The notes under the pieces are model-generated. The model made no database searches and was not told the DNA's origin. It worked only from the letters and a program-made list of their open reading frames with translations. DNA of 14,088 nucleotides, from the IMG/VR virus record IMGVR_UViG_2695420814_000008. One strand, given 5' to 3'. Below, one piece after another: positions 1 to 12,532 of this stretch. The stretch comes from a virus (taxonomy: Duplodnaviria > Heunggongvirae > Uroviricota > Caudoviricetes). The number at the start of each line of letters is the position of its first letter. The first letter of the stretch is position 1. The position numbers were made by a program, and so were the translations under genes.

Positions 1-79
1 GCCTTCAGGGAAAAATATCATCAGATGGCTGCTTAAAAAAAGAACAAATGGTAGTGTCCGCTATTGCCAGTACACCTCA
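1..79 (+). mobile_element. Right end of an IS3-family (IS600-like) element, including the last 11 codons and stop of its orfB (1..36); the element presumably continues left of the window
   Basis: Positions 1-79 match 5868-5946 (3' end of the transposase ORF 5085..5903 plus terminal sequence ending ...CACCTCA); sequence diverges at 81. RC of the end is TGAGGTG..., the TG...CA terminus typical of the IS3 family. Confidence 0.8.
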
Positions 80-206
80 GGGTATAAGGGGTTATGGCCA
101 CCGGACTACCAAACGGCTGCCAGCCCTCTTTCAGTTTATGTGTCAGCTTTTCCGCAAGATCTGACGGCGGCGCCGCCCTGACAACATCATAGTGTTTAAA
201 TGCCAT
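80..206 (-). pseudogene. 5' part of a small phage-associated gene (MAFKHYDVVRAAPPSDLAEKLTHKLKEGWQPFGSPVAITPY...) truncated by the IS600-like end; resembles small DUF1737-type prophage proteins (from memory)
   Basis: ATG at 206 preceded by GGTGGAAAG (SD-like); reading frame runs straight into the IS end at 79/80 (track ORF 33..221), so the native C-terminus is lost. Confidence 0.3.
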
Positions 207-466
207 GGTTCTTTCCACCATCTGAAAAATAATTCTTTAAAATACCTGACATGTAATACAGAAAAAACACAAAACCATACCTTAAATAAAAACCTGATTA
301 TCAAGCAGATATGCATGGATAAACTACAAGACGAGATATAAACCACCCTGCATTTAAATAAACAATAAACAACATCAGAAAAATAATTCTGCTCTATGGT
401 TTACATTCAAAAATATCATTTATACTTTTCAGAACATCACCAGCAAGGCATAAACAAGGAAACTAA

Positions 467-802
467 ATGAAGTGGATTGTGATTGATACAGTTATCCAGC
501 CATCATGCGGAATATCTTTTTCAGTCATATGGAGTAAAATAAAATTAATAATCTGGTATCAATCGGATGCTTTCTTACCTCCTGAAAGTATATTTACACT
601 GACTCACACAGGCATCATGCTCAATAACAAAGTGCTACCTGTAACCATTTACAACGTAGTACCATTCAATAAAACATTCTGGAATTCAATCAAAAATAGC
701 CAGGAATGCCCTACAAATACAGATAACGTATTGAATGAATGCTTTAATAACCGTTGCACTCTGCAAATATGTCCTTATGGACTAAAACAACAAAGTCCAT
801 AA
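467..802 (+). CDS. Hypothetical 111-aa protein in AT-rich DNA, C-terminal third Cys-rich; no family recognised
   Basis: ORF track; AAGGAAA about 7 nt upstream of ATG; long open frame in a block visibly AT-rich where stops are frequent by chance; followed by a strong hairpin at 837-858. Confidence 0.35.
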
Positions 803-836
803 GGAGTTTACTCACATCTGACAAAATCAATATAAA

Positions 837-858
837 CAGCCCCTCCGGAGAGGGGCTG
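837..858 (-). terminator. Perfect 9-bp GC-rich stem-loop (CAGCCCCTC-CGGA-GAGGGGCTG); U-tract only on the minus-strand reading
   Basis: Inverted repeat read directly; on the minus strand it is followed by TTTATATTGATTTT, on the plus strand it lacks a T-run. Confidence 0.4.
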
Positions 859-1249
859 GAGAGTGGCGCTATGTGCCATTGCATGGTGCCGGGTGCCTCC
901 CGGTGAATTCAGTACCAGCACCTGAATCCGCGATTATCCCATATACCTACTCGCTGATTGCCCCTCCGCACAGGGGGATTCACCATGCCAGTTTCTTTTA
1001 ACAAACTCCCCGCAAACCAGACAACAGTCAACCGCCTGAATTGTGAAGTATTTAAAAATTTCTCCCGCTAACTGATACCCGGCTAACAGTCTGGCGTTTT
1101 CTTTTTCAGCAACGGGAAAGCAACAACCACCACACCCGCCACCAGCACACCGTCAGCCAGCACTGACATTATCCGGCTGCTGCAATGCCATTCACAAAAA
1201 CAGTAAGCAATCACTTTTTACCGTAACAGGTGATAATCCAGATATGTAT

Positions 1250-1603
1250 CTACCCCAGATGAGTAATCCGAAGTTCATCCATACCACAGGTCCTGGCTAT
1301 TCTGTTGTACTCCTGAACAAGAGCAAATAATTCTGAATTAGCAACCATGAACTCATCGCAAACCCTCTGTATAGCATCACTATTCAGAATAATAACGTCT
1401 CTTCCCGAAAGACGATCAGGAGTACAGAACAAAACTGTCAAACGGCTGAAGGCCTTTGCTCGTGCTGCATTGACTATATCAATACGCTGCCTAAGGATGA
1501 AACACCCCGACGCCTCATCAATATTCACTCTACCCACACCATATGAATGATAAATATTTAATGCTGAAAAAACCATTAGACCGTATAACAAACACTCAAT
1601 CAA
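1250..1603 (-). CDS. Hypothetical protein (117 aa from TTG at 1603; 108 aa from first ATG at 1576); not recognised
   Basis: ORF track; lies just downstream (minus strand) of the phage tRNA pair in the position where lambdoid phages carry moron genes; no convincing SD, and an overlapping plus-strand ORF (1347..1550) exists, so coding strand is uncertain. Confidence 0.3.
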   Translation of the reverse strand: MIECLLYGLMVFSALNIYHSYGVGRVNIDEASGCFILRQRIDIVNAARAKAFSRLTVLFCTPDRLSGRDVIILNSDAIQRVCDEFMVANSELFALVQEYNRIARTCGMDELRITHLG

Positions 1604-1713
1604 TACTTAACAGAACTTTTATTTTTGACAAACATAAAATATTTTCAACAATATCCTGAGCCAGGTATATTTCAGTATAAGGCTCTGCCGGAAGGAATCT
1701 GGAAGAATGAATA

Positions 1714-1790
1714 TGGCGCGCTGTACTGGATTCGAACCAGTGACCGATTGCTTAGAAGGCAATTGCTCTGTCCGGCTGAGCTAACAACGC
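1714..1790 (-). tRNA. tRNA-Arg, anticodon UCU (phage-type, argN-like)
   Basis: RC reads GCGTTGTTAGCTCAGCCGGACAGAGCAATTGCCTTCTAAGCAATCGGTCACTGGTTCGAATCCAGTACAGCGCGCCA: 7-bp acceptor stem (one G-U), GCTCAG D-arm, anticodon stem ATTGC/GCAAT with loop CTTCTAA, GGTTCGAATCC T-arm, encoded CCA. Confidence 0.85.
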
Positions 1791-1890
1791 TGAATACCGA
1801 TAATGGACCGCCATCGGGGACCCGCCCCCGCACCAACAACCCTGTTATCGTGTCGTCTGCTCTTCCTGATAAGCTAATGGCGGTTTGTGA

Positions 1891-1966
1891 TGGTGGCCCT
1901 TGCTGGATTTGAACCAGCGACCTGGCGATTATGAGTCGCTCGCTCTCACCACTGAGCTAAAGGGCC
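1891..1966 (-). tRNA. tRNA with CAU anticodon, most similar to tRNA-Ile2 (ileX/ileZ type, lysidine-modified) rather than tRNA-Met
   Basis: RC reads GGCCCTTTAGCTCAGTGGTGAGAGCGAGCGACTCATAATCGCCAGGTCGCTGGTTCAAATCCAGCAAGGGCCACCA: 7-bp acceptor stem, anticodon loop CTCATAA, T-arm GGTTCAAATCC, encoded CCA; overall close to remembered E. coli ileX. Confidence 0.8.
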
Positions 1967-2007
1967 GGGAGCAGAATAATAACGGTCCGTAATTAATTCC
2001 GCAATAA

Positions 2008-2034
2008 AAAACCCGCTCGGCGGCGGGTTGTAGA
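2008..2034 (-). terminator. Rho-independent terminator about 35 nt downstream of the Q-like gene (candidate tR'-type site or plain operon terminator)
   Basis: Plus strand AATAAAAAA-AACCCGC-TCGGCG-GCGGGTT; on the minus strand a 7-bp GC-rich stem is followed by UUUUUUAUU. Confidence 0.6.
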
Positions 2035-2068
2035 AACTCTTCTAACGTCAGGCATAAAACGCCCATAG

Positions 2069-2923
2069 TTATGACGAATTTACCACAGATTCCGGAAAAA
2101 TCAACCTAGTTACCTTTTTTAACTGCCGCTCAGCCCATGCTTCTTCAATATCAAACCGAGTCACCAGCGCATCATAGAATTTCTTAACTGTTTTTTCCCA
2201 TGACGCGCGTGTTATCTGGTTTGTCACCTCGCATATAGCATTAAATGCCTCCGTTGATGGTAGTCTTTCATAGCCACGACCACCACAACGCTGGCAGTCT
2301 CTGATAACAGGCATACCACGTTTTACCGACTCTTCACGATGAATGGCGACACCACGCCCACGGCAATCCTTACAGGCGGTGGAAACCTCACCCTTTCCGC
2401 CACACTCCGGACAGGCAACTTTTACCACCTCCCTGACTTTTTTCCATTCTTCCCAGTAAGACGGATACACACCTTTCGTACACTTTGCCCATACCGGCGG
2501 CTTACCATCCGGATACTGGACCTTGTTTGTAAAAACTACGCTTTCAATAAATTTTTCCCCATAGCAACAAGGGCACTGCTTTTTACTCGCTGCGCTGCGG
2601 GCATAATCCTCAAAAGCGTACGAAGCCATAATGCGCATCACTACCGGTTTTATTTCTGCCGGAAGTTTTCTCAACGCCGCCACACGATCGCACCGACTGA
2701 GTGCATAATCTGCCAGTAATTCTGTTGCCCGCGCCCTGTCATTCATACTGATGCCCATTTTCCCCAGGAACGCAGAAAACCCCATCTCAGCCCGATTCTG
2801 TGTCATGCCCTGCGCGGCCATCACATCAGTGATACTCAGCGCATCTTTTGACGTTGAGGCCGATGCATCGGTCAGGCAAGGGGATTTTGGGGAGTAGTAT
2901 TTCGGTAAATCTTCCAGTTTCAT
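2069..2923 (-). CDS. Lambdoid late-region regulator, putative Q-like antiterminator, carrying four DnaJ-type zinc-finger repeats (CPCCYGEKF, CPECGGKGE, CKDCRGRGV, CQRCGGRGY)
   Basis: 284-aa ORF; start ATG overlaps the rusA stop (ATGA); immediately downstream of rusA and upstream of a terminator and phage tRNAs, the canonical Q slot. Product assignment is by position plus motifs, not by recognised sequence identity. Confidence 0.55.
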   Translation of the reverse strand: MKLEDLPKYYSPKSPCLTDASASTSKDALSITDVMAAQGMTQNRAEMGFSAFLGKMGISMNDRARATELLADYALSRCDRVAALRKLPAEIKPVVMRIMASYAFEDYARSAASKKQCPCCYGEKFIESVVFTNKVQYPDGKPPVWAKCTKGVYPSYWEEWKKVREVVKVACPECGGKGEVSTACKDCRGRGVAIHREESVKRGMPVIRDCQRCGGRGYERLPSTEAFNAICEVTNQITRASWEKTVKKFYDALVTRFDIEEAWAERQLKKVTRLIFPESVVNSS

Positions 2924-3294
2924 TTTTTGACCTGCTCTTCATGCATTATGGGGTAAATCTTCACCCCCAGACGTCCACCAGATACTGGCTGACCACGAAC
3001 GATATTGATTTCATCAAACTGCTCATCGTCCATTAACACTCCCGCATGTGTCAGTGCATCCAGTGGTGCTTTCAGGATATTGTCCAGGTCACGACGGCGC
3101 TTATCCGGTGGCTCTGCAATAATCTTTATCGCCAGTCTTCCGGACAGGCTTAATTTCAGTCGCTGCTGACGGACAATAAGCGCCACATCCCGGCGATAAC
3201 GCTCACCGGCTTTTGATACAAAATATGTGTTGTCACGACGTCGCCAGTAAGTATTCACCGTCGGCGGATAAGGTAAAATAAACTCATGGCGCAT
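2920..3294 (-). CDS. rusA: RusA-family Holliday-junction resolvase (prophage crossover junction endodeoxyribonuclease)
   Basis: 124-aa ORF with ...PPDKRRRDLDNILKAPLDALTHAGVLMDDEQ..., matching the RusA catalytic-core motif (D-RRRDLDN) as remembered from E. coli RusA; typical nin-region location. Confidence 0.85.
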   Translation of the reverse strand: MRHEFILPYPPTVNTYWRRRDNTYFVSKAGERYRRDVALIVRQQRLKLSLSGRLAIKIIAEPPDKRRRDLDNILKAPLDALTHAGVLMDDEQFDEINIVRGQPVSGGRLGVKIYPIMHEEQVKK

Positions 3295-3551
3295 CAGCGC
3301 AGCACCTCCTGCACCAGTTTTTCAAACTTTCCGACTCTGGTTTCCAGCTCTGCCACACAGTCCACCAGCTCATCTACTGCTTTCTGTGCGCGATGCTTCG
3401 CCTGCATCAGTTCCCGAAGCGCGGGTACCATATCTTTACGGATAGCGTCTTTTGTTATGCCCGTTTTTTCGAGTTGTTCAGCATGACGCAGCATTTCCTG
3501 CGCGTGTTTACGCAATTGTTCAGGGGTAAAAGTCATTGTCTGGTTGTTCAA
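3294..3551 (-). CDS. Small hypothetical nin-region protein (85 aa from TTG at 3551; alternative ATG at 3536), predicted helical
   Basis: ORF track; stop overlaps rusA start by 1 nt (TGATG); GGAG 9 nt upstream of the TTG. Confidence 0.5.
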   Translation of the reverse strand: MNNQTMTFTPEQLRKHAQEMLRHAEQLEKTGITKDAIRKDMVPALRELMQAKHRAQKAVDELVDCVAELETRVGKFEKLVQEVLR

Positions 3552-3885: not shown

Positions 3886-4890
<1,005 letters not shown>

Positions 4891-5946
4891 AGAAAAGGGC
4901 TCGGTACTCCTGGTTCCCGCACGGTGGCTGAACTGGAATCTGAAATTCTGCAACTGCGTAAGGCGTTAAATGAAGCTCGCCTTGAGCGAGATATATTAAA
5001 AAAAGCAACAGCGTATTTTGCACAGGAGTCGCTGAAAAATACGCGTTAATCGAACAATGGCGACAACAATTTCCCATTGAAGCGATGTGTCAGGTATTTG
5101 GTGTATCCAGGAGCGGTTATTACAACTGGGTACAGCATGAACCCTCAGACAGAAAACAAAGTGATGAGCGGCTAAAACTGGAGATTAAGGTGGCACATAT
5201 CCGCACTCGCGAAACATATGGAACCCGGCGGCTCCAGACGGAGCTGGCAGAGAATGGCATCATCGTTGGTCGTGACCGACTGGCACGTCTTCGTAAGGAG
5301 CTAAGGCTACGCTGTAAGCAGAAACGCAAGTTCAGAGCGACTACGAACTCGAACCACAATCTGCCAGTTGCGCCAAATCTGCTGAACCAGACGTTCGCTC
5401 CTACAGCACCAAATCAGGTCTGGGTGGCGGACCTGACGTATGTTGCCACACAGGAGGGATGGTTGTACCTCGCTGGCATCAAAGATGTTTATACGTGCGA
5501 AATTGTCGGCTACGCCATGGGAGAGCGCATGACAAAAGAGCTGACAGGTAAAGCCCTGTTTATGGCGCTCAGGAGCCAGCGCCCACCTGCCGGGCTAATC
5601 CACCACTCTGATCGAGGTTCACAGTACTGCGCATACGATTACCGGGTCATACAGGAGCAGTCTGGTCTGAAAACATCAATGTCGCGTAAAGGTAACTGTT
5701 ACGACAACGCTCCGATGGAAAGCTTCTGGGGAACGCTGAAAAATGAGAGCCTGAGCCACTATCGTTTTAATAACCGGGATGAAGCCATCTCAGTAATACG
5801 GGAATACATTGAGATTTTCTACAATCGTCAGCGTCGTCACTCTCGTCTGGGGAATATCTCCCCGGCAGCCTTCAGGGAAAAATATCATCAGATGGCTGCT
5901 TAAAAAAAGAACAAATGGTAGTGTCCGCTATTGCCAGTACACCTCA
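4891..5946 (+). mobile_element. IS3-family (IS600-like) element lacking roughly its first 200 bp: orfA 3' part (4891..5049), slippery A-run, orfB, right end
   Basis: orfA frame reads ...RKGLGTPGSRTVAELESEILQLRKALNEARLERDILKKATAYFAQESLKNTR*; orfB product has the DDE-integrase core; 3' end identical to 1..79. Confidence 0.8.
5085..5903 (+). CDS. IS3-family orfB DDE transposase domain (probably made as an OrfAB fusion by -1 frameshift at the A-run 4998-5005)
   Basis: 272-aa ORF with ...WVADLTYV..., HSDRGSQY, ...[14 protein letters not shown]... (D, D, E core); orfB frame is open back across the A7G slippery run and is -1 relative to orfA. Confidence 0.85.
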
Positions 5947-5947
5947 G

Positions 5948-6313
5948 ATGATTGATGTCTTAGGGCCGGAGAAACGCAGACGGCGTACCACACAGGAAAA
6001 GATCGCAATTGTTCAGCAGAGCTTTGAACCGGGGATGACGGTCTCCCTCGTTGCCCGGCAACATGGTGTAGCAGCCAGCCAGTTATTTCTCTGGCGTAAG
6101 CAATACCAGGAAGGAAGTCTTACTGCTGTCGCCGCCGGAGAACAGGTTGTTCCTGCCTCTGAACTTGCTGCCGCCATGAAGCAGATTAAAGAACTCCAGC
6201 GCCTGCTCGGCAAGAAAACGATGGAAAATGAACTCCTCAAAGAAGCCGTTGAATATGGACGGGCAAAAAAGTGGATAGCGCACGCGCCCTTATTGCCCGG
6301 GGATGGGGAGTAA
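5948..6313 (+). CDS. insC: IS2 OrfA (InsC), HTH transposase N-terminal protein
   Basis: [41 protein letters not shown]...; the track ORF starts at an upstream in-frame ATG (5915) that lies in IS600-like sequence; slippery A AAA AAG at 6265-6271. Confidence 0.9.
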
Positions 6314-7176
6314 GCTTAGTCAGCCGTTGTCTCCGGGTGTCGCGTGCGCAGTTGCACGTCATTCTCAGACGAACCGATGACTGGATGGATGGCCGCCGCA
6401 GTCGTCACACTGATGATACGGATGTGCTTCTCCGTATACACCATGTTATCGGAGAGCTGCCCACGTATGGTTATCGTCGGGTATGGGCGCTGCTTCGCAG
6501 ACAGGCAGAACTTGATGGTATGCCTGCGATCAATGCCAAACGTGTTTACCGGATCATGCGCCAGAATGCGCTGTTGCTTGAGCGAAAACCTGCTGTACCG
6601 CCATCGAAACGGGCACATACAGGCAGAGTGGCCGTGAAAGAAAGCAATCAGCGATGGTGCTCTGACGGGTTCGAGTTCTGCTGTGATAACGGAGAGAGAC
6701 TGCGTGTCACGTTCGCGCTGGACTGCTGTGATCGTGAGGCACTGCACTGGGCGGTGACTACCGGCGGCTTCAACAGTGAAACAGTACAGGACGTCATGCT
6801 GGGAGCGGTGGAACGCCGCTTCGGCAACGATCTTCCGTCGTCTCCAGTGGAGTGGCTGACGGATAATGGTTCATGCTACCGGGCTAATGAAACACGCCAG
6901 TTCGCCCGGATGTTGGGACTTGAACCGAAGAACACGGCGGTGCGGAGTCCGGAGAGTAACGGAATAGCAGAGAGCTTCGTGAAAACGATAAAGCGTGACT
7001 ACATCAGTATCATGCCCAAACCAGACGGGTTAACGGCAGCAAAGAACCTTGCAGAGGCGTTCGAGCATTATAACGAATGGCATCCGCATAGTGCGCTGGG
7101 TTATCGCTCGCCACGGGAATATCTGCGGCAGCGGGCTTGTAATGGGTTAAGTGATAACAGATGTCTGGAAATATAG
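6271..7176 (+). CDS. insD: IS2 OrfB (InsD), DDE transposase catalytic protein, 301 aa
   Basis: ORF track; -1 frame relative to insC; sequence matches remembered InsD. Confidence 0.9.
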
Positions 7177-7187
7177 GGGCAAATCCA

Positions 7188-8752
<1,565 letters not shown>

Positions 8753-8811
8753 CGAAAGTATTTAGCGGGCATGAAAATGGCAAATAACGGTCAAACATCG
8801 TGGCGTTGACA

Positions 8812-9218
8812 ACAGTACAGGACGTCATGCTGGGAGCGGTGGAACGCCGCTTCGGCAACGATCTTCCGTCGTCTCCAGTGGAGTGGCTGACGGATAATGG
8901 TTCATGCTACCGGGCTAATGAAACACGCCAGTTCGCCCGGATGTTGGGACTTGAACCGAAGAACACGGCGGTGCGGAGTCCGGAGAGTAACGGAATAGCA
9001 GAGAGCTTCGTGAAAACGATAAAGCGTGACTACATCAGTATCATGCCCAAACCAGACGGGTTAACGGCAGCAAAGAACCTTGCAGAGGCGTTCGAGCATT
9101 ATAACGAATGGCATCCGCATAGTGCGCTGGGTTATCGCTCGCCACGGGAATATCTGCGGCAGCGGGCTTGTAATGGGTTAAGTGATAACAGATGTCTGGA
9201 AATATAGGGGCAAATCCA
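8812..9218 (+). mobile_element. insD: IS2 3' fragment (last ~407 bp: InsD C-terminal 132 codons plus right terminal repeat), a second copy of 6781-7187
   Basis: Direct identity to 6781-7187 by inspection, including the terminal GGGGCAAATCCA; the track ORF 8800..9207 is this insD fragment with a spurious start. Confidence 0.85.
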
Positions 9219-9220
9219 CG

Positions 9221-9355
9221 GGGATACCAGTTCAACCGAAAACGCCAGAGGAGGGGATTACCCGCTGGCAGGGTAAATCTGTGGTTTTTGATGCCAGCTA
9301 TAACGTGTTTGACGATAAAGTATTACGAAAGAACTTTAATGAGTTCATGGAGTAA
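9221..9355 (+). pseudogene. Orphan 3' end of an unrecognised gene (...GIPVQPKTPEEGITRWQGKSVVFDASYNVFDDKVLRKNFNEFME*) cut off by the IS2 right end
   Basis: Frame is open from the IS2 boundary to a stop at 9353-9355; no start codon or RBS of its own. Confidence 0.3.
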
Positions 9356-9498
9356 TTCGTTAAAGTAATTTACAACGCTATCCTTTTGCAAAGGAAACTT
9401 TCAGAAAATAACCCCAGGGTAATCACCTGGGGAAGGAACACAGTGTTATTATTGGATAATAAATTATTACTTGTTTTAAAGTTACACTAATGCAATAT

Positions 9499-10584
9499 CT
9501 ACTGATACTGGATGCTTGAATGTTTCATCCCTGCTGCGGAAAAGGGCAATATCCAGGGCCAGATATATTCACCGTTCATATTTCTGCATTTCTGTACAAT
9601 TTCCTCAGAAAGTGTCTTGTCAATTCTTTTCCACAGGTGCTCCTGCTGTCTTAAAATACTTTCGCATATTTCGAAATCATCTTCCTGAATCAGCATTTCG
9701 GCGCATTTAATGATTTCTGATCGTTCATGCAGCACGGAGGAATGGTTATAGAGCCAGTTTACAAACAGCAATGCTTCCGGATATTGTCCCCATAATGGTG
9801 AGTATGTTGCATAGTAATCTTCTGCCGTATCCAGAGAGCCGGAGAAGTCATGCCACACAGCAAGTGGAAATGGATGCAGATTTCCGCACAGCATTTCTGC
9901 GATGTAAGTGTTTGTGGCAAAGCCATGGCGAAAAGCTGTGGCGGCCTTAACATGTTCCCCGTTCAGAAAATGCAGGAGACCGAGTTCATACCAGTAAGGT
10001 GAAAATTCATCAGCATGCTCTTTCAGTACACTGAAGGCTCGCTCATGATCGCCGGTGCGTAACAGCTCTGAACCCAACAACCAGCGAGCCCCCTGATTAT
10101 CTTCAGGATTGTATGCCAGTATTTTATCAGTGAGCATAACCGCATCCTGATGGCGCTGTAAGTGCACATTTGCGAGAATTGCTGCATAAAGCGCGCGCAG
10201 ATAAGGCCGGTTTTCGGGATGCATCCAGATTATTTCACCACAGAAACTTTCCGGGATGATACGATTACCTGCCGCCAGTCCTTTAAGAGAGGCGTTCAGT
10301 GCCTTACGCGGGGCATTCTGTTCCAGAAATGCATATGCCAGATGAGCGTGTATATCAATAAAGTCCGGCTCCCGTTGAGCAAGGCGTCGGAGTTTGTTGA
10401 TGTAACTCGTCTCGCTGATTTCATCAGCGTCGTATGCATCAAGCACTTCTTCAAACTCCCCCAGCAATGGGCCAAACCAGGTATCCGGAAATACGAAATA
10501 ACCCTTGTTATCGTGCACTTCAAAGCATAATCTATCGTTCATTTCTGAGCCTGTAAAACATGTGGTGATATAGTCTGAGAGCAT
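9499..10584 (-). CDS. Hypothetical island cargo protein, ~361 aa from first ATG (374 aa if the GTG at 10623 is used; another ATG at 10542); alpha-helical, possibly TPR-like; no catalytic motif recognised
   Basis: Long ORF in track (9499..10623); same orientation as and immediately downstream of int; flanked on both sides by AT-rich DNA. No start candidate has a good SD, so the start is uncertain. Confidence 0.6.
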   Translation of the reverse strand: MLSDYITTCFTGSEMNDRLCFEVHDNKGYFVFPDTWFGPLLGEFEEVLDAYDADEISETSYINKLRRLAQREPDFIDIHAHLAYAFLEQNAPRKALNASLKGLAAGNRIIPESFCGEIIWMHPENRPYLRALYAAILANVHLQRHQDAVMLTDKILAYNPEDNQGARWLLGSELLRTGDHERAFSVLKEHADEFSPYWYELGLLHFLNGEHVKAATAFRHGFATNTYIAEMLCGNLHPFPLAVWHDFSGSLDTAEDYYATYSPLWGQYPEALLFVNWLYNHSSVLHERSEIIKCAEMLIQEDDFEICESILRQQEHLWKRIDKTLSEEIVQKCRNMNGEYIWPWILPFSAAGMKHSSIQYQ

Positions 10585-10871
10585 AAAAGTTGAGATTCTG
10601 TGTATCAAGTCCTGTCTTGGCACCGAATGAATATTGCTTACGAAGCCCCTTCATGCTTTCCTTGAGAACAATAATTTTATCTTTATGTGAATCTCATTTT
10701 TTATAATGATGTCAGATGATTGAAATGCTAAATTATATCTGAATCAACTTTTCCTTTGCTAAAGGTATCGAAATAACTGCAAGGCTGTATTTTGTAATTG
10801 CCAATTTAAAAATGTCAATTTGTTTTTAATTATGTTTTTGTAATAAGTTTGAAGACGCAAAAAAAATAATA

Positions 10872-10908
10872 TAATAACAAAAATCCTCCAGCCTTGTAGG
10901 CCAGAGGA
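10872..10908 (-). terminator. Probable int terminator: imperfect 10-bp stem-loop followed by a U-run on the minus strand
   Basis: Plus strand TAATAACAAAAA-TCCTCCAGCC-TTGTA-GGCCAGAGGA; 8 of 10 stem pairs form; about 46 nt downstream of the int stop. Confidence 0.5.
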
Positions 10909-10953
10909 TAAAATACTTAATTGAGGAAAATATCAGGGAAAAGTATTTCTGAC

Positions 10954-12138
10954 TTAACTTTCCCGGCTGGAGAGTGAATCAATGTAATCAGCGTACCATT
11001 GCATCATTTCACGGCGGCCATCGAGATACAGGGCATGATTATAGGTACCCCTGATGGAATTTTTATCCACATGAGCTAACTGCATTTCAATCCAGGCGGA
11101 ATTAAAGCCTTGTTCATGCAGAATTGTACTCATGGTGTGTCTGAAACCGTGCCCTGTGAGTCTTCCCTTATATCCAAGTAATTCAATTACTTGGTTAATG
11201 CTTTCCTTACTAATTGGTTTGCGGGGATCATTTCTACCGATAAAGACTAGGGGATGATGTTTTGAGATTGGTTCAAGCTGCTTAAATAGCATAATGACCT
11301 GCTCAGAGAGCGGCACAATATGAGGTCGCTTCATCTTCATTACTTCTGCCGGGATCTCCCACAATTTTGTCTCAAAATCGATATCTTCCCAGCGTGCAAA
11401 ACGCAGTTCTTGTGTTCGTACGCCGGTTAACATAATGATCTGAGTAGCTGTCTTAGTGATTATACTTCCGGTATAACCCGCCAGATCGTTGAGGAAGTGG
11501 GGAAGTTCATTAGCAGTAAGAAAGGGAAAATGTACTTTTTTCGGTGTAGCTAAAGCACTGGCAAGATCGGGGGCTGGGTTATAGTCTGCCCGGCCAGTAA
11601 CAATTGCATAGCGGAACACCTCACCACAGCGCTGGCGGACCTTGCGCATTTTCTCCAGAGCTCCACGTTTTTCCATTTTACGCAGTGCTTCCAGTAACTC
11701 CATTGGTTTGATTTCGGCAATAGGGCGCTTGCCAATGTAGGGAAAAATGTCTTTTTCAAAGGTATCAATGATTTCATCACGATAGCGTAATGACCACCGA
11801 TCAGCTTTTGACTGGTGCCATTCGCGAGCAATAGCCTCGAACGTATTTTTCAGACTCATTTGCTGCGCGATTTTTTCTTCCTTTTTTGCCTCCCCTGGAT
11901 CGCCTCCAGCAGCGAGGAGTTTCCTGGCTTCACTGCGTTTCTCGCGAGCATCGGCTAGCGTTACATCGGGGTATACGCCAATAGAAAGCATCTTTTCTTT
12001 ACCAGCAAAGCGGTACTTCATGCGCCAGTATTTAGAACCATTAGTGTTAATCAGTAGATACATACCGCCGCCATCAGCAAGCTTATAGGGTTTGTCTTTG
12101 GGTTTTGCGGTTTTCACTTTGATATCGGTTAATGCCAT
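10954..12138 (-). CDS. int: P4-family tyrosine integrase (394 aa), apparently intact
   Basis: N-terminus MALTDIKVKTAKPKDKPYKL... typical of tRNA-associated P4-like integrases; catalytic-region motifs ...TGVRTQELRFARWEDID..., GHGFRHTMST (HxxR), ...RGTYNHALY (Tyr); strong SD GGAGG 5 nt upstream of ATG; sits beside the 3' end of selC. Confidence 0.9.
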   Translation of the reverse strand: MALTDIKVKTAKPKDKPYKLADGGGMYLLINTNGSKYWRMKYRFAGKEKMLSIGVYPDVTLADAREKRSEARKLLAAGGDPGEAKKEEKIAQQMSLKNTFEAIAREWHQSKADRWSLRYRDEIIDTFEKDIFPYIGKRPIAEIKPMELLEALRKMEKRGALEKMRKVRQRCGEVFRYAIVTGRADYNPAPDLASALATPKKVHFPFLTANELPHFLNDLAGYTGSIITKTATQIIMLTGVRTQELRFARWEDIDFETKLWEIPAEVMKMKRPHIVPLSEQVIMLFKQLEPISKHHPLVFIGRNDPRKPISKESINQVIELLGYKGRLTGHGFRHTMSTILHEQGFNSAWIEMQLAHVDKNSIRGTYNHALYLDGRREMMQWYADYIDSLSSRES

Positions 12139-12437: not shown

Positions 12438-12532
12438 TGGCGGAAGATCACAGGAGTCGAACCTGCCCGGGACCGCTGGCGGCCCCAACTGGATTTGAAG
12501 TCCAGCCGCCTCACCGGAGACGACGATCTTCC
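12438..12532 (-). tRNA. selC: tRNA-Sec (selenocysteine, anticodon UCA), 95 nt including encoded CCA
   Basis: RC reads GGAAGATCGTCGTCTCCGGTGAGGCGGCTGGACTTCAAATCCAGTTGGGGCCGCCAGCGGTCCCGGGCAGGTTCGACTCCTGTGATCTTCCGCCA, the E. coli selC sequence as remembered, with the long extra arm and 8-bp acceptor stem typical of tRNA-Sec. Confidence 0.95.

Follow-up and report, generated by a model that had tools for sequence, protein, structure and literature searches.

The window analysed here is a stretch of 14,088 nucleotides from a virus record of the class Caudoviricetes (IMG/VR record IMGVR_UViG_2695420814_000008), and the subject of this study is a long open reading frame on its minus strand, at 9499..10623. 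We found that this frame is, with near certainty, shiA, a gene of the SHI-2 island whose Escherichia coli homologues are sisA and sisB, and that its product very probably belongs to the TCF25/Rqc1 superfamily, as a distant bacterial relative that has retained only the core of these proteins. The gene itself is already known and serves as a widely used virulence marker in Shigella, uropathogenic E. coli (UPEC), enteroaggregative E. coli and E. coli that produces Shiga toxin (STEC) and is negative for the locus of enterocyte effacement. What is new here is the relationship to TCF25/Rqc1 and the association of the shiA family with mobile elements and recombinases. Three results bear on experiments with ShiA: the TCF25/Rqc1 fold, the presence of the gene as mobile cargo in many non-pathogens, and its frequent physical coupling to site-specific recombinases. 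The overall explanation that we favor, with modest confidence, combines the identity of the gene as shiA, a fold of the TCF25 superfamily, and a role for the protein as a scaffold inside the bacterium with an indirect effect on the host.

Identity and coding frame of the gene

The coding sequence was placed from the translation of the open reading frame, the RefSeq start, the N-termini of homologues and primer matches:

9499..10542, minus strand: shiA coding sequence, 347 aa plus stop codon

The minus-strand frame runs without interruption from 9499 to 10623, as a preliminary description of the window had stated, and would encode 374 aa if begun at GTG 10623. That length, also taken from the preliminary description, is not the likely one. 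The real start is almost certainly ATG 10542, giving a protein of 347 aa and a gene of 1,044 bp, because this is the start given by RefSeq for 99.9%-identical loci (1,044 nt), the equivalent methionine opens 43/43 homologues in our 44-sequence alignment of the family (alignment A1), and the published size of ShiA-like and sisA genes is 347 aa or 1,044 bp (PMC13340028, PMC3256949). The 27 additional open codons up to the GTG (10543-10623) are absent from all homologues in A1; therefore, this segment is probably an untranslated leader, and the GTG start is probably not used.

Several independent matches identify the gene. The shiA/sis PCR primers, which PMC3256949 gives as taken from Lloyd et al. 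2009, match the window exactly (forward at 10301-10320, minus strand; reverse at 10029-10054, plus strand) and span 292 bp, the published product size, with no match expected by chance. The 347-aa protein is exactly identical to a multispecies Shigella protein present in at least 1000 contigs of the protein collection searched, and its 83% cluster carries the name “ShiA-like protein” in UniProt. A scan of one genome per species listed matches in S. flexneri (SFBU1023), E. coli and E. ruysiae as 100% identical, and tblastn gave 99.7% for the same loci. The ShiA-like protein of E. coli REL606, likewise 347 aa long, is 97% identical to ShiA of S. flexneri M90T (PMC3256949). A 2026 paper showed that the 1,044-bp gene labeled “tetratricopeptide repeat protein” by PGAP is sisA, and reported identities to ShiA of 83.3% for SisA and 96.8% for SisB (PMC13340028). 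In E. coli nomenclature, the shiA of the window is a sisB-type allele.

The position of the gene agrees with this assignment. SHI-2 lies beside selC, and its first 2,877 bp contain shiA (selC island study, PMC6174562); the order in the window, tRNA-Sec followed by int and then shiA, corresponds to that description. Thus, with the same selC-int-shiA placement and exact matches to the diagnostic primers, the window gene is the same gene as shiA of S. flexneri SHI-2. The related SisA and SisB occur in UPEC CFT073 and in the LAA and SE islands of STEC. Alleles at pheV and pheU are 84-92% identical to the window gene at the DNA level and have the same layout of tRNA, int and shiA-like gene. In contrast to SHI-2, the island past shiA is replaced in the window by insertion sequence (IS) elements and a prophage fragment.

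The preliminary description had called this frame unrecognised and the best candidate in the window for an uncharacterised function. In the sense of an unknown gene this does not hold, since the gene is named, has published phenotypes of inflammation suppression and serves in PCR as a marker of virulence; as far as gene identity is concerned, it falls in a known effector family. In animal models, shiA, sisA and sisB are all reported to lower inflammation (PMC7545054, PMC13340028, PMC4229854); these phenotypes were established in the rabbit ileal loop, the murine lung and murine urinary tract infection. Transcriptomics of S. flexneri M90T showed induction of shiA by anaerobiosis (PMC4229854), and sisA was expressed in the urine of 6/8 patients with urinary tract infection (PMC2978726).

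Of 5426 complete E. coli genomes, 1965 (~36%) contained DNA homologous to shiA, 1919 of them at full length, with up to five shiA-like copies per genome; the laboratory strain BL21 is among the carriers. Pairwise ratios of nonsynonymous to synonymous substitution (dN/dS) among the selC, pheV, pheU and other alleles ranged from 0.14 to 0.24, and shiA is therefore under purifying selection. Together with the published transcription, these data show that shiA is a real, working gene, one that is conserved, selected and expressed. The suggestion that a gene next to the integrase would have an accessory function was thus sound in its general form: this is a genuine conserved accessory gene, and virulence, one of the functions proposed, fits the published phenotype, whereas no support was found for a known defence function.

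Predicted fold and domain searches

The AlphaFold2 model of ShiA, computed from the 44-sequence alignment, had a mean per-residue confidence (pLDDT) of 92.9 and a predicted TM-score (pTM) of 0.88. In this model, a β-hairpin formed by residues 6-17 is predicted to pack on a solenoid of about 17 helices, a few of which resemble tetratricopeptide repeats (TPR). N111 and D148, which lie 37 positions apart, are invariant in all 44 sequences of the family, and F7, G14 and F16 of the hairpin are invariant as well. The protein ends in a conserved C-terminal extension of its own, of about 80 residues, which closes with IWPW.

Pfam returned only weak TPR-type matches, confined to residues ~129-206 (about 80 of 347): ANAPC3 passed its threshold of 27.2 bits with a score of 32.2, TPR_19 fell just short (24.9 where 25 is required), and the other TPR models scored below threshold. 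No enzymatic domain was found in ShiA with Pfam or NCBIfam. The absence of an enzymatic motif and the TPR-like helices, both noted from the letters alone, were thus confirmed by the two domain libraries and the structural model. In sequence searches of the PDB, the single ShiA sequence gave only chance-level matches and the family profile only generic TPR proteins. No family of PADLOC-DB 2.0 was matched at E<=1 by ShiA or by the integrase, and the PHROGs and a viral fold library returned nothing specific for ShiA, which gives no support for a known defence or phage function. The N-terminus, read directly from the translation, is hydrophilic, and no signal sequence or secretion signal is evident in the ShiA sequence.

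MamA, the TPR domain of OGT, CDC27/APC3 and Hop/Sti1 are similar to ShiA in their helical-hairpin architecture, and two to three repeats of ShiA score as TPR in Pfam. The matches to such generic TPR scaffolds, however, span only 110-190 residues of ShiA, and their scores are below that of Rqc1. A further difference is that the conserved residues of ShiA are located in the loops between repeats and in the β-hairpin, and canonical TPR arrays have no such hairpin.

Probable relationship to TCF25 and Rqc1

The assignment of ShiA to the TCF25/Rqc1 superfamily, which we consider highly probable, rests on a transitive chain of profile comparisons together with the fold. The best structural match to the ShiA model in the PDB was Rqc1, a chain in entry 9ofv, with a query-normalised Foldseek TM-score of 0.55. 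A scan with the family motif [ED]NRP[YF]LR recovered short prokaryotic and archaeal proteins of 250-305 aa, from Thermoplasmata, Chthoniobacterales, Chitinophaga and others. All 13 of the 13 that we aligned (alignment A2) passed the Pfam family PF04910 (Tcf25), the best with an E value of 3e-17. Comparison of the ShiA family (A1) with A2 by hhalign gave a probability of 99.9% and an E value of 1e-33 over ShiA residues 9-264, and comparison of A2 with eukaryotic TCF25 (alignment A3) gave 98.3% and 2e-14. The bait for A3 was a stretch of human TCF25 that proved 100% identical to a database entry, and the returned sequences alone were used. In the direct ShiA-TCF25 alignment, PDFID is placed opposite PYHVD, ENRPYLRAL opposite ENRSFYLAL, and NPEDNQG opposite EPDEDPL. 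The A2 proteins share invariant F...ENRPFLRALH...D motifs with ShiA and lack its C-terminal extension; they pass the Pfam Tcf25 model, which ShiA does not.

The conserved asparagine and aspartate of ShiA have counterparts in these proteins. According to a 2026 bioRxiv preprint, the most conserved residues of Rqc1 are N423 and D461, which are 38 positions apart, with N423 touching the sole β-sheet of the protein, and both are described as structural residues. The A2 proteins have an invariant N114 and D152, also 38 apart, and N111 and D148 of ShiA align with the ENR and PDED segments of TCF25. In the ShiA model these two residues are predicted to lie beside the single β-sheet, similar to N423 and D461 of Rqc1 in spacing. 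Because the pair is structural in Rqc1, we do not take N111 and D148 as a sign of a catalytic site.

On the other hand, the N-terminal parts of TCF25/Rqc1 that contact the ribosome and the RING domain are missing from ShiA. In TCF25/Rqc1, a disordered polybasic N-terminus binds the 60S subunit, the RING domain of Listerin is bound by helices immediately upstream of the β-sheet (human residues 188-202, with F195; yeast F214/D215), and C-terminal residues hold the acceptor ubiquitin (Rqc1 E637 and E657). ShiA has neither the polybasic N-terminus nor the RING-binding helices, as only 5 residues precede its β-hairpin. The hairpin aligns from residue 6 of the TCF25 isoform P0220, which begins just upstream of it; counted on the full-length human sequence, this isoform presumably starts after the RING-binding helices. 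The ShiA-TCF25 alignment stops at position 286 in ShiA and at position 311 in the isoform, which has 481 residues, and the ubiquitin contacts lie beyond this point. The missing N-terminal elements and the short alignment therefore make ShiA a core-only relative, half the size of TCF25/Rqc1, which has in common with them an α-solenoid core with a single small β-sheet. Bacteria lack the Listerin/ubiquitin system, so the known activity of TCF25 cannot be the native role of ShiA.

An exhaustive profile search of the family counted 197 clusters (at 50% identity) with a limit of E<=1e-30, and 2,362 when the limit was relaxed to E<=1e-10. A Tcf25-like family of this size in bacteria and archaea may be relevant to how a eukaryotic component of ribosome-associated quality control (RQC) arose. 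In the literature collection searched, no paper mentions TCF25/Rqc1 together with shiA, sisA or sisB. Short Tcf25-passing proteins were seen in Thermoplasmata, Micrarchaeota, Verrucomicrobiota, Bacteroidota and Nitrospirota, although Tcf25 is usually treated as eukaryotic. The prokaryotic Tcf25-like loci (L032, L035, L036, L044, L045, L048, L051, L055, L068, L072, L074 and L078-L080) have the motifs ENRPFLRALH and NPxDxxG in common, and some Tcf25-like relatives, for example in Streptomyces and Sphaerochaeta, have long unrelated N-terminal regions.

Genomic contexts across the family

Across Proteobacteria, the shiA family is found mostly as single-gene cargo of mobile elements, namely tRNA-associated islands, Tn3 transposons, conjugative elements and plasmids. 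In E. coli, the order tRNA, P4-type integrase, shiA-like gene recurs at selC, pheV and pheU, and the cargo beyond it differs. At these three sites in Escherichia and Shigella the shiA-like gene lies 320-450 bp downstream of the integrase and in the same direction. A convergent transferase gene follows at selC, at pheU, and at a fourth E. coli locus with no adjacent integrase. Among the loci examined, no P4-type integrase adjoined a homologue outside Escherichia and Shigella. The preliminary description had asked whether homologues sit in integrase-adjacent hotspots; for the P4-type integrase this is so in these two genera only, and the remaining homologues are mostly on mobile DNA as well. We also considered ShiA as an integrase cofactor that would accompany a P4-type integrase in all homologues, and rejected this idea, given the restriction to Escherichia/Shigella and the strong terminator between int and shiA.

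A second recombinase association was found in transposons of the Tn3 family, where tnpA and tnpR enclose the homologue; the hosts are Arsenophonus, Pseudescherichia, Morganella, Serratia and Pseudomonas amygdali. The last 7-34 nt of the homologue overlap the start of the serine resolvase gene, and the arrangement persists despite divergence of the ShiA-like proteins to 60% identity. In other Tn3 transposons, the interval between tnpA and tnpR is the place of toxin-antitoxin passengers. The Tn3-family loci are as follows:

L006, 8001-9577
L007 (its resolvase gene has an internal stop)
L092, 3325-4901
L098, 5001-6577
L100, 5001-6577

In betaproteobacterial conjugative elements, the homologue stands beside TraG/DtrJ and Tra genes, and in Pseudomonas putida it adjoins an integrase and KfrA. 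A homologue was carried by 81 plasmid records, of which 46 are conjugative; Rhizobium, Sphingobium, Aeromonas and Yersinia ruckeri are among the hosts. Homologues also occur in bacteria from the environment or associated with plants, for example in Massilia, Rubrivivax, Sphingobium, Rhizobium and Pseudomonas.

Some local arrangements were observed in addition. At two loci (L010 1194-3397 and L011 6691-8999), a gene for a Fic-domain protein (HPFxDGNGR) lies directly upstream of the ShiA-like gene, with a 4-nt overlap of stop and start. At a Sphingobium locus (L025 2877-8978), genes for a Fic protein, for an ATPase of the OLD family and for a helicase of the UvrD type precede the ShiA-like gene; read by eye, the ATPase and helicase look like a Gabija-type pair. 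A module of three genes, in which a ShiA-like gene (82-85% identical) is joined by an AraC/helix-turn-helix regulator and a diguanylate cyclase with a GGDEF domain, occurs in two settings, on the chromosome of E. coli C5 and, flanked by IS66, on IncF conjugative plasmids from sheep farms (L083 4908-8766, L099 3910-7764).

Proposed mechanism and alternative explanations

The mechanism that we put forward, at slightly less than an even chance, is that ShiA would stay in the bacterial cytoplasm and act as a soluble, non-enzymatic scaffold that binds other proteins. Its binding surface would be formed by the conserved loops between helices, namely ENRPYLRAL (with N111), NPxDNQGxR (with D148), RxGFxxNxYIAE (205-216) and PLAxWH (224-231). 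Binding at this surface would alter some conserved bacterial process, and the dampened host inflammation seen with shiA, sisA and sisB would be a downstream consequence. We favor an intrabacterial role because of the hydrophilic N-terminus, the carriage of the gene by BL21 and by environmental bacteria, and the mobile-element contexts of the family.

A number of observations weigh against this explanation, from the fold to the proposed mechanism. In entry 9ofv, the chain of Rqc1 is an AlphaFold model as well, placed in a density map of low resolution. The direct hhalign comparison of the ShiA family with eukaryotic TCF25 (A1 against A3) was marginal, with a probability of 31.6% and an E value of 5e-4; it was colinear over 260 columns, in the same register. 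ShiA is below the Pfam Tcf25 threshold, and weak matches to that model were obtained for only 2 of the 44 family members (best E 0.0044). With regard to function, the phenotypes reported from experiments in the published work are all on the host side (inflammation and recruitment of T cells and polymorphonuclear leukocytes). Clustering of the neighbors of 23 distant loci revealed no family-wide partner gene, and only local patterns emerged, with Tn3 tnpA/tnpR, with Fic and with RNase G. Finally, the proposed scaffold mechanism is drawn from the predicted fold, the conservation and the distribution of the family.

The recombinase contexts described above suggest another explanation, in which ShiA serves the mobile element itself, as an establishment, anti-defence or recombinase-accessory factor expressed with the recombinase, or just after it, on entry into a new cell. 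The co-directional P4-type integrase directly upstream in Escherichia/Shigella islands fits such a role, as does the tnpA/tnpR placement with its resolvase overlap, kept at 60% identity. The TraG/DtrJ neighbors and the plasmid records, more than half of them conjugative, point the same way, and so do the single homologue beside the Gabija-like pair and the two overlapped by a Fic gene. However, no PADLOC model or informative PHROG was matched, int and shiA are kept apart in the window by a strong terminator, and most chromosomal homologues of betaproteobacteria have no recombinase within 8 kb. The placement next to the integrase may also be mere hitch-hiking of DNA beside attL, and no such anti-defence or directionality factor made up of TPR alone is known to us. 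We regard a role in the service of the element as unlikely. It is very improbable that the TPR-like helices make ShiA a class II chaperone of type III secretion (similar to IpgC/SctY) or a peptide sensor of the RRNPP type (similar to Rap/PlcR). A weak NCBIfam match to SctY (E 1e-5) speaks for the chaperone, but its score of 26 bits is far from the cut-off of 70, the family is present in organisms and strains that lack type III secretion, and class II chaperones are only about half as large as ShiA. The structural matches to chaperones and RRNPP proteins span only 127-175 residues and are no better than those to dozens of unrelated TPR proteins, and for a peptide sensor, no helix-turn-helix, phosphatase domain or recurring adjacent short peptide gene was seen in the loci examined.

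The relationship to TCF25 raises the question of whether the ShiA family works as TCF25 does, as an adaptor that places a partner protein on a conserved machine, which we think quite unlikely. Such an adaptor may act at the bacterial ribosome or in proteostasis, in an RQC-related prokaryotic activity older than the eukaryotic complex, or it may act after delivery into host cells, on the ubiquitin/RING-ligase machinery; the host-delivery version, if true, would explain an inflammation phenotype that is 20 years old. The corresponding explanation in its strict form, which appears improbable to us, is that ShiA delivered into host cells mimics TCF25 and disturbs the building of ubiquitin chains, RQC or RING E3 ligases, with less inflammatory signaling as the result. 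It would draw on the TCF25/Rqc1 fold and homology, on the binding of the Listerin RING domain and the acceptor ubiquitin by TCF25, and on the host-inflammatory nature of the phenotypes reported for shiA and sisA/sisB. It would also agree with the way in which other Shigella immunomodulators act on host ubiquitination, OspI for instance through UBC13 (cited in PMC4229854). Against it, ShiA has neither the RING-binding region (TCF25 residues 188-202, F214/D215 in Rqc1) nor the polybasic N-terminus, and the ubiquitin-contacting C-terminal region of TCF25 cannot be aligned to it; nor is a secretion signal evident in the sequence. Moreover, carriers of the family include BL21 as well as bacteria that live freely in soil and water and have no animal host, and the Tcf25-like proteins of prokaryotes form an ancient family that extends to archaea, which points to a prokaryotic function. 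The historical label of ShiA, a quinone reductase or NAD(P)H oxidoreductase, deserves almost no credence. Its sole support is a statement attributed to Moss et al. 1999 and quoted in PMC6174562 and PMC7545054, against which the model is predicted to be all α-helical except for one β-hairpin, with no Rossmann or flavodoxin-like sheet, and no oxidoreductase was matched in Pfam, NCBIfam, or the PDB sequence and fold searches.

The quinone-reductase label is thus effectively refuted by the predicted fold. Reviews nevertheless still describe ShiA as a “putative quinone reductase”, and one paper lists it under transporters; both of these misleading labels go back to a fold-recognition guess of 1999, and the predicted fold is at odds with either.

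Neighborhood of shiA in the window

The integrase, the integration site and the candidate signals around shiA are located as follows:

12438..12532, minus strand: tRNA-Sec (selC), integration site of the island (ARAGORN; RefSeq)
10954..12138, minus strand: P4-type tyrosine integrase of the selC island, 394 aa (identical RefSeq locus; 100% tblastn match)
10883..10909, minus strand: terminator-like hairpin with a 12-bp stem and a T-run, directly past the int stop, between int and shiA
10789..10818, minus strand: candidate sigma-70 promoter, TTGACA-18 nt-CAAAAT, 10/12 matches, in the AT-rich spacer upstream of shiA (from a consensus scan only)
9412..9432, minus strand: intrinsic-terminator-like hairpin with a 7-bp stem (6 G-C pairs) followed by TTATTTT, ~65 nt past the shiA stop

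The gene is the first one past the integrase, and yicJ lies beyond tRNA-Sec on the other side. Its flanks are AT-rich, with a GC content of 0.33 at 10501-11000 and 0.38 at 9251-9750, compared to ~0.48 within shiA. Because a candidate promoter precedes it and terminator-like hairpins stand on both sides, shiA looks monocistronic. The preliminary description was accurate on all of these points: it had placed the frame first after an integrase at a tRNA site, between AT-rich flanks and next to IS debris (the IS2 copy that extends to ~9218), and had called it a single gene without partners.

The left end of the window, from 1 to 3300, is a late-regulation fragment of a lambdoid prophage with these genes:

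2920-3294, minus strand: RusA
2069-2923, minus strand: antiterminator Q
1891-1966: tRNA-Met(CAT)
1714-1790: tRNA-Arg(TCT)

The best matches to this fragment are phages similar to mEp460 and Stx-converting phages, and it contains no stx genes in the window. IS elements connect it to the selC island, and the left 9.3 kb were found contiguous with the selC island in no complete E. coli genome. The exact protein match and the number of IS elements may point to a Shigella genome as the source of the window. The connecting IS nest, at 3886-9218, consists of an IS21-family istB (3886-4686, minus strand), an IS3-family transposase (5085-5903) and an IS2 copy, followed by the remnant of a gene:

5945..9218, plus strand: IS2 copy, which cuts off the transferase gene with its right end (from blastn against the complete IS2 of L004 and L005, Pfam on open reading frames and the junction sequence)
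9227..9352, plus strand: remnant of a YjgX/YhbX-type phosphoethanolamine transferase gene, of whose 557 codons the last 42 are left (from tblastn searches with the complete genes at L082 and L084)

The IS2 copy is itself interrupted at ~7188-8806 by a partial IS21/IS100-like element, which comprises the C-terminal part of istA and istB. The preliminary description had raised the possibility that the IS2 insertion at 9218 severed something from shiA, and we rejected a lost operon partner. The remnant corresponds to residues 516-557 of the transferase and is 74-86% identical to intact convergent genes at the pheU locus and at one other E. coli locus; RefSeq annotates the same remnant as a partial pseudogene in the genome of E. 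coli O111:H21 15A. The gene cut by IS2 is convergent with shiA and is therefore a neighbor rather than a partner in an operon. The transferase gene of IAI39, which is of a different, 500-aa type, gave no match to the remnant at 9227-9352. The loci L001, L003, L004 and L005, which come from E. coli O111:H21 15A, E. ruysiae, the E. coli strain ECMA0423 and S. flexneri SFBU1023, have the same junction between IS2 and the transferase gene. Because several genomes have it in common, the insertion is either old or was carried along with the int-shiA block.

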